Assembly (NCBI RefSeq): GCF_022045235.1
Contig: NW_027266341.1
Span: 12,524,001 to 12,588,000, forward strand
Direction of reading: 5' to 3'
Source of the DNA: Haliotis cracherodii
Taxonomy: Eukaryota
Length of the DNA stretch: 64,000 nt
In this document: one piece after another, positions 6,358-59,631 of the stretch
Layout: each line of letters opens with the position of its first letter
Numbering within the stretch: position 1 is the first letter of the stretch
The notes under the pieces: model-generated
What the model was told of the DNA's origin: nothing
Seen by the model: only the letters and a program-made list of their open reading frames with translations
Databases searched by the model: none
Made by a program: the position numbers and the translations under genes

Positions 6358-7892
6358 TTAAGGATTCAATGTAAATAAACTAGTTTTATGACGAACCGAT
6401 ACACCATGTACTTCGTCTTGGTGACAATGTTTTTCCAAGTTGTTTCTTTGTCTCATTAAATAGTATTATATTTCTACAATAATAAAAATTCATTTTGACA
6501 ATTGACAATTTATTGTTGTTACCCTATACAATGTAGGTATTAACCAACGTGTGGGGCTACTGATAATAGTGTCGAATTCTGTTTACCTGCAGCTGTGCCA
6601 CAACTTCGGGTCATATCTTAGGATGTACTCTATTCTACGGAGATATGCAATATAATGGTAGAGTGACCAGCCTAATAATAGGCGAAGTGTAACATAATAT
6701 TCGACCGATATATATTAGAGAGGTGGAGAGAAGGCAGTCAAAGATAAGGGAGGGGGAAGAGAGCTAGAGAGAAAGGGGGAGAAAGAAGAAGTAGAAGAAG
6801 AATGAGAAGGAGGTGGAGAGTAAGAATATGTTTTCATTTCAATGATATGTCAATTGTATATCAGAGCGAATAAAATAGTAGTAAGTATTATACCTACCGT
6901 ACGTCACACCCTGCTTGTTTAACAAGCAATAACTTCTTGTGTTTGAGCGATGACTTGACCAAGTGGAATCTAAGTACATATTGCCGAAACATTGCCCAAC
7001 CTGCATTAACACTGAATCGTAACATTAATGATTGCGTAGATGCAGCCTCACGGCATGCAATGGCAATAAGGGCACGACAAACATGTTTCACGAGTTAAAT
7101 ACTGGATTAAAACATGTACATTTAATTACACAAACATAAGCGGGAGGTCTGCCCAATGTTACACAAACACTGCAAATTAAAAAAACAGGAAGTATGACTG
7201 GCATATCATTAAGACAGACATGTTATCAGATTTATGCATGTAGTTTTCAAGACCAAAGTGATAGGTTGTGTTCTCTAAATACGCATTTGAAAACACGTGT
7301 CTCTCACTGCCCTTCTAGAAGTTGATACTAGTAAGGAATAATGAAACTATTATAACAGTTTCTGATTTACTTCACGTTGAGTTGAATGTTGGCGCGCGGA
7401 CAGCGTCCGCCAAAGGACATGGTAACACGAGTAATACTCAATTACAACGCCAGCGTCGTGGATATAAAACAATTAATGCCACGTTGTAACAGGAAGAACC
7501 AATACGTCCATTACGTGACTCCATGCTGGGACACGGGTAGCACTGTGAGTCAAGACGTAGCACAAGTTCTAGGATGCCTCCCCTGTTAAGATGCGGGTCT
7601 TCAGCCACCCGTACTTGTCGTAAGAGGCGGTTAACAGGATCGGTGCTCAGACTCGCTGACTTCGTTTATGTCATCGTATCTCAATGGGTAAACTCATGAT
7701 GTCAGTCACTCGATTGTTTGGTCCAGACTCAATTATTTACAGACCGACCTCATACAGCTGTACTATTACTGCGTGCAACGTTAAACAACACACACGCACA
7801 CGCATACACGCACACGTACACGCACACGCACACGCACACACAAAACTCAACTGCTTATGTATTTTATAGTATGGACATTTTATTCAAATTCA

Positions 7893-8059
7893 GGGGTGGT
7901 CGGGTAGCATAATGGTTCAAGCGTTCGCTCGTCACGCCGAAGACCCGGTTTTTGATTCCCGACATGAGTACAATGCGTGAAGCCCATTTCTGGTGTTCCC
8001 CGCCGTGATATTGCAGGAATATTGCTAAAGGCGGCGTAAAACCGTACTCACTCACTCAC
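7893..8059 (+). mobile_element. tRNA(Asp)-like SINE (family D)
   Basis: Head with cgctcGTCacgccgaagacccgg resembling the tRNA-Asp(GTC) anticodon and T arms; (TCAC)n tail; TSD tattcaaatt. Confidence 0.85.
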
Positions 8060-8390
8060 TATTCAAATTTCAAGAAACTTTATGCTTTTCATCATTAAAG
8101 ACCTCTCATTCTAGACATTTTATAGTCGACATGATGCGCAATGCTCGATGGTAACCTATGTCATGACCTTTACAATGAGTTTTCATACGCACTGGCACTA
8201 TAACTTGTAATGACATTGTGTGTGTGGAGGGTGCTGACGGTAAGGCAATACACCTGGTGTCCTGGTGTCATCCTTCAGTGTTCCATTCAGGTTTCAATAC
8301 AGTGTCGTTTTTACGCCCTACATTTTGGCAGATATTTGAGATTTTTGCCTGGCATCCTGACACGGGGATCGGTTGGACAGGCTGTGTACC

Positions 8391-12310: not shown

Positions 12311-12321
12311 AACAAAGTTAA

Positions 12322-12570
12322 CCCTCGTGAAGATCCGGGTTAGAATTGGTCTCCGGCAACCCACGCTTGTCGTAAGAGACAACTTACAGGATCAGCTGGT
12401 CTGACTCGCCAGCTTGTGTATGCATGTAATGTATCCCAATTACGTTGTTCGATGATCATAATCTCTGTAACTTGTTTGTCTGGTCCAGAGTCGATTCTGT
12501 ACAGAGCGCCGTCATACTGTCGGAATATTGCTGAGTGTGGCGTTAAACACCAATCACAGAAACACACTAA
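12322..12570 (+). mobile_element. Family P SINE-like element (other copies near 7580-7790 and 43195-43370; 3' parts at 32030-32200 (-), 39150-39255, 54940-55040, 60490-60595)
   Basis: Colinear with 59021-59257; tail gctgagtgtggcgttaaacac. Confidence 0.75.
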
Positions 12571-54590: not shown

Positions 54591-54771
54591 TATACAAACT
54601 ACATATTTTGATTAATATATTTCCCGCTACCACTTAAAACATTAATTCCTACGAGAGTAGTGTGCGTAATGTCATATCAATTTTGTAGAGTTCTGTCTCC
54701 GTATTTACTGGGGTGAAGTGTGTGCTTCAAAACACGATAAAACAAGATTTGCAAATGTTCGAGTACGTCTT

Positions 54772-54893
54772 AGACCCGGGTTCGATTCCCGACATGGGTA
54801 CAATGTGTGAAGCCCATTTCTGGTGTCCCCCGCCGTGATATTGCTGGAATATTGCTAAAAGCGGCGTAAAACCATACTCACTCACTCACTCAC
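54772..54893 (+). mobile_element. Family D SINE, 5'-truncated
   Basis: 13-bp TSD tcgagtacgtctt at 54759 and 54894. Confidence 0.85.
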
Positions 54894-58852: not shown

Positions 58853-59020
58853 AATGAAAACTATGTATACATATTTCACTAATGACTAATATATATACTT
58901 ACAAAGAAAGTATAAGAGGCATTGAATTCAAATTTACCGCATATATATTTCTCTCTAAAAATGAACCCGTCGTTGTATGTTTATTCAGTACATCAAAAGA
59001 CATACTTTCACTCGTAGTGT

Positions 59021-59257
59021 AGGCCCGTGAATATCCGGGGTAGAATAGGTCTTCAGCAACACATGCTTGTCGTAAAAGGCGACTGTGCTTGTCGTAAGAG
59101 GCGACTGACGGGATCGGGTGGTCAGGCTCGCTGACTTGGTTGATGCATGTCATCGATCCCAATTGCGTGGATCGATGCTCATGTTGTCAACCACTGGATT
59201 GTCTGGTCCAGACTCGATTATTTACAGACCGCCGTCTTATAGCTGGAACAAACCAAC
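59021..59257 (+). mobile_element. Family P SINE-like element with pseudoknot-forming non-tRNA head
   Basis: 12-bp TSD cactcgtagtgt at 59009 and 59258. Head cccgtgaatatccggggtagaataggtcttcag; the GTCGTAAGAGGCGAC hairpin is duplicated in tandem. Confidence 0.85.
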
Positions 59258-59631
59258 CACTCGTAGTGTTTTAAATGATGTTTTGTCAAGGTTTTATTAT
59301 TTTAATATATGTGCATATTTTTAAAACCAATCCTTGAATTCTACCTCTAATGCCGCTGCTAGTGACTATAGTGTGAATAAAGGTCAGTAAGTTCAGTTCA
59401 GTGACCCTGGACCCAGTTCAAGGATTCCTGGTCAGGAAAGGTCCCCACTGGTTTGTCTGGCCCAGACTCTCACCCCCAACACCGGGTTTTGCGCCAATTC
59501 ATTTTGATTTTTATATCGAAGAAAGAAATTTTGGAAATTAAGGAATACGAACAAACAACTAAATTACATTACCAAAATTAATGAATTCTCGAAATAACAC
59601 ACGTTTCTAGAGTAACTTACTAGGTGGAGCA

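Follow-up and report, generated by a model that had tools for sequence, protein, structure and literature searches.

A pseudoknot-plus-hairpin RNA common to animal retroelements and viruses forms the head of a Haliotis SINE

Introduction

The closest described relatives of the element considered here are mollusc LP-SINEs. Matetovici et al. (2016) reported 255-bp LP-SINEs in Haliotis with a head of ~70 bp that is common to Nimb-17_LMi, I-3_DR and RTE-9_CPB, proposed that this head is a promoter and mentioned the promoter/ribozyme of L1Tc as an analogy (PMC4758252). Unlike the present analysis, the sections of that paper covered here give no structure for the head, no viral occurrence and no upstream ribozyme (PMC4758252). 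HDV-like ribozymes are known from R2, L1Tc, RTE and other elements (features used for comparison, PMC3185411; background, PMC6765202), and Nimb is not in the list of six ribozyme-bearing LINE clades in the covered part of one source (PMC5786205). Also relevant are xrRNAs, which block 5′–3′ exonucleases: location in 3′ untranslated regions (UTRs) and tandem copies are typical of them, and a 2021 review, in the sections covered, regarded xrRNAs in cellular RNAs as yet to be found (PMC8374639). For class 3 xrRNAs, the base of P1 is where Xrn1 stops (PMC12397905), and ordinary frameshift pseudoknots fail to stall this enzyme (PMC10321173).

Here we analyse a SINE copy in a 64,000-nt stretch of the Haliotis cracherodii genome (hereafter, the window). 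Its head is a real RNA fold, composed of an H-type pseudoknot, a stem and a conserved hairpin, and this fold is a structured RNA common to retroelements and viruses and absent from Rfam. The earlier note on this DNA did not connect the SINE with LP-SINEs, under which name the family and its LINE-derived head have very likely been published (PMC4758252); what is new is the fold, of which the open literature searched holds no description (figures, supplements, Repbase and subscription papers lie outside that scope), together with the mapping of the SINE 5′ end and an HDV-like fold upstream of the motif in LINEs.

Results

The SINE copy and its family. The 5′ end of the copy had been placed at 59021 on the strength of a target-site duplication (TSD), and this placement stands: the 12-bp sequence CACTCGTAGTGT occurs only twice in the whole window, once on each flank of the copy. 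The features are as follows.

7577–7793, + strand: older SINE copy with a single hairpin and a 10-nt deletion in the pseudoknot
12319–12553, + strand: older SINE copy with a single hairpin
59009–59020, + strand: 5′ TSD, CACTCGTAGTGT
59021–59257, + strand: LP-type SINE copy (family ~263 bp), lacking ~21 nt of the 3′ tail by copy alignment
59024–59039, + strand: stem S1 (59024–59027 with 59036–59039); within it, loop U at 59028 and then the S2 5′ strand at 59029–59035
59040–59047, + strand: A-rich loop L3, with conserved AGAAUA at its end
59048–59054, + strand: S2 3′ strand, here forming 6 of its 7 pairs
59056–59068, + strand: linker and P3 5′ strand (59060–59062), then GCUU as the 5′ part of the internal loop
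59069–59090, + strand: additional 22-nt hairpin unit, a family trait
59091–59112, + strand: conserved hairpin P4 (GUCG-UAAGAGG-CGAC), followed by the 3′ part of the internal loop and GGG as the P3 3′ strand
59113–59231, + strand: SINE body, without a match to the LINE UTRs searched
59232–59257, + strand: Nimb-type 3′ tail, truncated, with a short (C/A) repeat
59258–59269, + strand: 3′ TSD, CACTCGTAGTGT

The window copies at 59024, 12322 and 7580, previously grouped, do align as one family, scoring 50.2, 43.5 and 26.3 bits against model R1, which was made from retroelement copies only. The source genome holds 6,264 exact matches to a 34-nt SINE pseudoknot pattern (control, 0); this count covers exact heads only, and the SINE thus has at least 6,264 intact heads. 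A BLAST comparison covering the window and 20 further 10-kb stretches returned 67 pieces, some of which belong to other families with the same tail. Full SINE copies are 86–94% identical over 32–35 nt to the 3′ ends of Nimb/I-type LINEs, which are abundant and intact in this genome, and the head is 75–79% identical over 61–63 nt to the 5′ UTRs of its Nimb LINEs. TSDs were detected in 30 of 60 tail-bearing copies and vary among copies, and the short tandem repeat at the 3′ end is (C/A).

The head had been described as free of Pol III A and B boxes, and this was borne out: neither box was found in the one full-length copy scanned (L025), in which relaxed A-box patterns with one mismatch gave three hits, and ARAGORN found no tRNA in either of two SINE loci. 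Nor did longer copies reveal a tRNA or 5S head further upstream, as 50 solitary heads have no common sequence beyond position −2. Separately, a tRNA-headed SINE family with the same Nimb-type 3′ tail is present in the window at 7893–8060, ~54720–54890 (+) and ~47130–47290 (−). Elsewhere in the genome, tandem arrays of the pseudoknot half of the head abut the 5′ side of a complete SINE body at two loci (L387 and L398; C1 near 4.975 Mb and 8.264 Mb), with units of 52 and 44 nt in ~7 and ~20 copies; template jumping at the 5′ end may have produced them.

The RNA fold of the head. From 5′ to 3′, the fold model consists of S1 (3–5 bp), the loop U, S2 (7 bp), the A-rich L3, a linker, P3, an internal loop (RNNU/UAA) and P4 with its 7-nt loop. 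To evaluate covariation, one locus per family was picked by eye (19 non-viral and 7 viral, giving 28 motif copies), S1 was placed blind to the S2 3′ strand, and S2 was then tested in a fixed register; as judged by eye, the automatic choice of S1 mis-registered no fewer than 5 of the 28 rows, which stayed in the count. Across the 28 copies, 76.5% of S2 cells were paired, compared with 54% when strands were swapped among copies (maximum 67%; 0 of 20,000 swaps reached the observed value), and pairing fell to 34–44% when the strands were slid; all seven pairs form in 12 of the 28. A MAFFT alignment of the 19 non-viral rows was consistent with this result, with both sides changing in five of the seven S2 pairs and 0 of 500 shuffles reaching the score, and LINE subfamilies contribute an additional A–U to C–G change in S2. 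Support for P3 came from 20 retroelement copies (1 of 20,000 swaps reached the score) and was weak in the viruses (741 of 20,000). Because the alignment rows are related, these shuffle counts are not probabilities.

The covariation that had been proposed as a check is therefore present and the predicted pseudoknot is real, with a refinement to its eight pairs: the conserved helix has 7 bp, followed by a U that is itself mostly conserved but stands opposite a variable partner. The copy at 59021–59257 departs from the family in that its S2 contains a U–C mismatch, P3 has CAC where the family has CCC, and the internal loop has UGA for UAA. An alternative pairing of GGGUU with AACCC was not upheld; the linker CCC instead forms P3 with the GGG that follows the hairpin. 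Hairpin P4 is unsupported by covariation because its pairs are nearly invariant, and its conservation is partly inherent in the search patterns used to collect loci; in a search that left the P4 loop free, true hits retained UA(A/U)(A/G)AGG loops. The tandem duplication of the GUCG/CGAC hairpin is present as claimed, but as a family trait rather than a peculiarity of this copy: two matches to the hairpin unit were found in 53 of 103 SINE heads, one in 23 and none in 27, and the duplication is part of the majority sequence drawn from 55 full-length copies.

Single-sequence folding energies were unremarkable for three SINE heads (z = −0.03 for the window copy, −0.24 and 0.18), as computed by a program that cannot form pseudoknots. 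A comparison with Rfam, also proposed earlier, returned no match to the head: the window gave nothing at the gathering score, and only chance hits fell near the copy, in 7 viral loci and in 17 other loci.

The SINE 5′ end. Copies of the SINE begin two bases ahead of S1. Of the 30 TSD-defined 5′ ends (among 60 copies examined), 24 fall 1–4 nt ahead of S1, and homology among 50 solitary heads, a set that excludes 30 tandem or nested ones, stops at −2, with −3 and positions further out near background. In these 50 heads, the base at −1, next to CCCG, is A in 44, and the base at −2 is G in 38. For a SINE family recovered from metagenomes (30 copies), the homology limit is instead at −1, with G at −2 in 8 of 30. 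Searching the genome for SINE heads preceded by the last strand of the HDV-like fold gave eight pattern matches, none with the ribozyme. Small-RNA reads from three runs labelled as another species mapped to one SINE copy (8, 119 and 12 reads), with an antisense 31-nt pile and none at its 5′ end; these reads are size-selected and cannot show where a 263-nt RNA begins.

Nimb LINEs. Among ORF1 loci of Nimb LINEs in the source genome, 28 of 30 bear the motif, each directly behind a 60-nt HDV-like fold and, with it, ~630 nt upstream of ORF1; the same order, HDV-like fold then motif, was found in 30 of 30 LINE loci examined, one of them with a deletion (L334–L363 and L402–L472; for example, L354:721–780). 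The genome contains 689 exact matches to the 21-nt core of this fold, and the last ribozyme strand is immediately adjacent in 544 of 600 exact LINE-type motifs. Of the first 100 such motifs, 16 lack an exact junction; the ribozyme was kept in all 14 of these that were inspected, and the other two are duplicates. In total, the ribozyme is retained in 62 of 62 distinct LINE heads (59 whole, 2 beginning 3 nt in and 1 internally deleted) and none of the 62 begins at the motif. LINE copies instead begin 60 nt upstream of it, at a sharp start (64 of 66 heads have G at +1, and the base before it is random) that contrasts with the less sharp SINE end (G in 38 of 50), the SINE copies being older.

From the first base of the LINE, a nested double pseudoknot can be read from the helices in the sequence and from a descriptor hit, scoring 27.5–29 bits against RF02682, below its gathering score of 44 bits. 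The first 60 nt of the LINE thus look like a new HDV-like member and a predicted ribozyme, with which Nimb would join the LINE clades that carry one. When 33 loci were scanned with the HDV descriptor, 32 gave no hit 5′ of the motif, among them a LINE in a Solemya record.

Several further observations concern these LINEs. Dense Nimb clusters in both orientations (C2:20.9–21.75 Mb and C6:4.2–5.6 Mb) resemble piRNA clusters, and antisense 31-nt small-RNA piles are seen on the LINE as on the SINE. An intact motif-bearing Nimb-type LINE (L303, G001:C4:517500–527000), with a 449-aa ORF1 and a 1,236-aa ORF2 of APE, RT and RNase H, is filed under a Solemya gill-symbiont scaffold and is probably host DNA within a bacterial assembly; the remaining six GTDB motif matches may likewise be host DNA in bacterial records. 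In one run (X2), summed contig depth over the ribozyme and pseudoknot (L354:702–819) was ~10–100 times that of the remaining 5′ UTR, with loose contig ends after 813/819, perhaps reflecting a separate abundant element in that run's organism; no such element was seen in 30 source-genome LINE loci.

The motif in viruses and other repeats. A pattern for the 3′ core only matched nine IMG/VR loci, seven of which also have the upstream pseudoknot and the AGAAUA linker, both lying outside the pattern. Model R1 scored 7 viral loci, those of the six RNA-virus contigs and the DNA virus described next, at 37–71 bits, compared with at most 24.8 bits for 30 other pattern-matched viral loci, and missed the first tandem copy in one contig (L265). 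Six distinct RNA-virus contigs carry the motif, four with an RdRP family hit and two with capsid hits only. In all six, it lies on the sense strand, 6–123 nt past the last stop codon, with its 3′ edge 14–119 nt from the contig end; two contigs (L077 and L265) have tandem copies. A large DNA virus (212,482-bp contig, matching Chilo iridescent virus in size) carries the motif in sense between two genes (L091:7983–8045), 121 nt past one stop codon and ~150 nt ahead of a long ORF. Most of what looser viral patterns added was due to chance: one such search gave 62 loci, of which 6 were true and distinct, and a single new virus was gained. Scans of metagenomes and GTDB contained at least many animal-repeat-like copies of the motif among the matches listed, and in four loci (L196, L206, L224 and L228) the motif is immediately 5′ of a tRNA-like head, as in the MESC SINEs of scallops; ARAGORN called no tRNA in L196 or L206.

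Discussion

The motif must act as RNA, because it is present in RNA viruses and its stems covary. It marks the 5′ end of elements with nothing upstream (SINEs) and not of those with a ribozyme upstream (LINEs): with the ribozyme retained in all 62 LINE heads, none of which begins at the motif, the motif does not determine the 5′ end of an element that has another means of setting it. We favour the reading that this conserved pseudoknot-plus-hairpin RNA blocks 5′–3′ exonucleases, as a new type of xrRNA that trims read-through transcripts to the 5′ end of the SINE, and we give it an even chance. Host read-through transcripts would include the SINE, whose first ~70–90 bases would fold into the pseudoknot and hairpin; a 5′–3′ exonuclease would be arrested by the head, leaving a transcript trimmed to the SINE 5′ end; and Nimb LINE machinery (ORF2p) would then likely copy the trimmed RNA via the common 3′ tail. 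In the LINE itself, the HDV-like ribozyme would be active at the 5′ end. Plain H-type knots fail to stop Xrn1 (PMC10321173), and the knot would therefore be insufficient by itself, such that the conserved hairpin domain would need to dock on it.

By analogy with xrRNAs, a passive block to 5′–3′ decay would fit every setting in which the motif occurs, including virus 3′ UTRs, tandem copies and SINE trimming. Two observations pull the other way: occasional LINE copies beginning at the motif might be expected if it arrests exonucleases, yet there are none among the 62, and the bases ahead of the SINE head (A at −1 and G at −2) would also suit a capped transcript begun by Pol II at A. The earlier note had inferred a promoter-less SINE that uses a structured RNA for 5′ processing or protection. 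The conserved pseudoknot and the missing Pol III head agree with that description, and its processing-or-protection half coincides with our best reading, but its suggestion of a ribozyme sits poorly with the 62 LINE heads and the virus 3′ UTRs.

Among other functions, the motif could recruit ribosomes as an element for cap-independent translation, by which uncapped RNAs (ribozyme-cut LINE RNA and the RNAs of tombus-like and toti-like viruses) would be translated and the SINE would ride on ribosomes making ORF2p. Its positions behind the HDV-like fold ~630 nt before ORF1, in virus 3′ UTRs and ~150 nt before the long ORF of the DNA virus are compatible with such a role, as is the conserved sequence of its hairpin and internal loops, which is often seen in binding sites. 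A 3′ UTR location past the stop codon is compatible with a cap-independent translation enhancer too. We nonetheless consider this function unlikely, as it leaves unexplained why non-coding SINEs of different animals start 1–2 nt before S1 with no common flank, and why some viruses carry tandem copies.

The published 'LINE promoter' reading, an internal Pol II promoter in DNA that is perhaps also an RNA structure like L1Tc Pr77, draws on the head lying at the 5′ terminus of SINEs and of three LINEs in Repbase (PMC4758252), on a purine at −1 with G common at −2 (a possible start site and reverse-transcribed cap) and on a precedent for dual function (PMC3185411). RNA viruses, however, have no use for a DNA promoter, the stems covary as the sequence changes, LINE copies begin 60 nt upstream, and the metagenome family has no G excess at −2 (8 of 30); we therefore rate this reading as distinctly improbable. 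The HDV-like fold upstream in LINEs is the main evidence against both this reading and a ribozyme: its retention argues against a promoter or efficient self-cleavage at the motif, as a strong promoter or an efficient ribozyme at the 5′ edge would have stripped it from LINE insertions. A new self-cleaving ribozyme cutting 1–2 nt 5′ of S1 is more doubtful still, for although the fold is compact with conserved unpaired bases, the SINE 5′ end fairly sharp, ribozymes known in UTRs of linear RNA viruses (a few of them in 3′ UTRs; PMC13725137) and LINE cleavage possibly masked by upstream bases tied up in the HDV P2 helix, the fold matches no Rfam ribozyme family, sense-strand cleavage in six virus 3′ UTRs would remove the genome end, and the SINE end, albeit in older copies, is less sharp than that of the LINE.

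Extended beyond the SINE, the exonuclease-blocking reading proposes a new xrRNA class, traded among animal retrotransposons, several RNA-virus lineages and a large DNA virus, that makes promoter-less SINE 5′ ends by nuclease arrest alone; we place this wider proposal slightly short of an even prospect. If true, it would provide a cellular xrRNA and a new route to a SINE transcript, would explain how a SINE with so many intact heads and no Pol III head is transcribed, and would require revision of the 'LINE promoter' reading of LP-SINEs. Whatever its function, the head is a structured RNA of retroelements and viruses that is missing from Rfam.

Comparison with known systems

Judged by sequence, the window SINE is very likely the published mollusc LP-SINE (Hdi_LP/Hmi_LP), with the Hdi_LP consensus itself compared by length only. 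Both have a ~70-nt LINE-derived head and TSDs, at 255 bp published and ~263 bp here (PMC4758252), and the window family has the LINE-homologous head in place of a tRNA head, the variable TSDs and the 3′ short tandem repeat of LP-SINEs. The Pol III head with A and B boxes of tRNA- or 5S-headed SINEs is absent. In the Nimb-17 homology head of scallop MESC elements (Suppl. Fig. S2), layout and core are as here, with S2 changes that by eye are compensatory (PMC4758252); identity with MESC/Meta SINEs was ruled out by the absence of a tRNA head.

The partner Nimb LINEs start with an HDV-like fold, like R2, L1Tc, RTE and others, whereas the SINE head, which follows that ribozyme in the LINE and stands alone in the SINE, lacks the HDV helix order: Rfam gave no nested double pseudoknot (P1, P1.1, P2, P3 and P4) for it, and in SINE loci L382 and L385 the HDV descriptor found no such fold that lay upstream of the head or extended into it. 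The CUAA of the head was considered as the J4/2 strand and rejected, the room for P3/L3 being too small. The earlier judgement that this helix order fits no known ribozyme held for HDV-like, twister, hammerhead and pistol ribozymes by helix comparison and Rfam, with no family-model match of the head to twister, twister-sister, hatchet or hammerhead. The A-rich linker after the hairpin is presumably a further likeness to pistol. The 5′ hairpin with a pseudoknot-forming loop resembles that ribozyme, as described in the covered part of its source, and helix order and the lack of an Rfam hit at E up to 10 set the head apart from it (PMC4604425).

The head lacks the secondary structures of xrRNA classes 1, 2 and 3 and of coremin (two short hairpins), with no three-way junction (classes 1 and 2), no P1/P2 stem-loop with T-loop (class 3) and no xrRNA match in Rfam. 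As a functional class, xrRNAs need a pseudoknot for their fold, form a ring of 15–16 nt around the 5′ end and block Xrn1 without protein; the head shares a conserved, covarying pseudoknot, whose role in resistance is putative. It resembles viral xrRNAs in its pseudoknot, its length of ~70 nt, its 3′ UTR or intergenic locations and its tandem copies, and the 5′ end that xrRNAs protect is at the base of the first stem (PMC8374639, PMC12397905). It differs from them in placing a simple H-type knot first and a conserved hairpin domain after it, and in occurring in cellular retroelements as well as in viruses.
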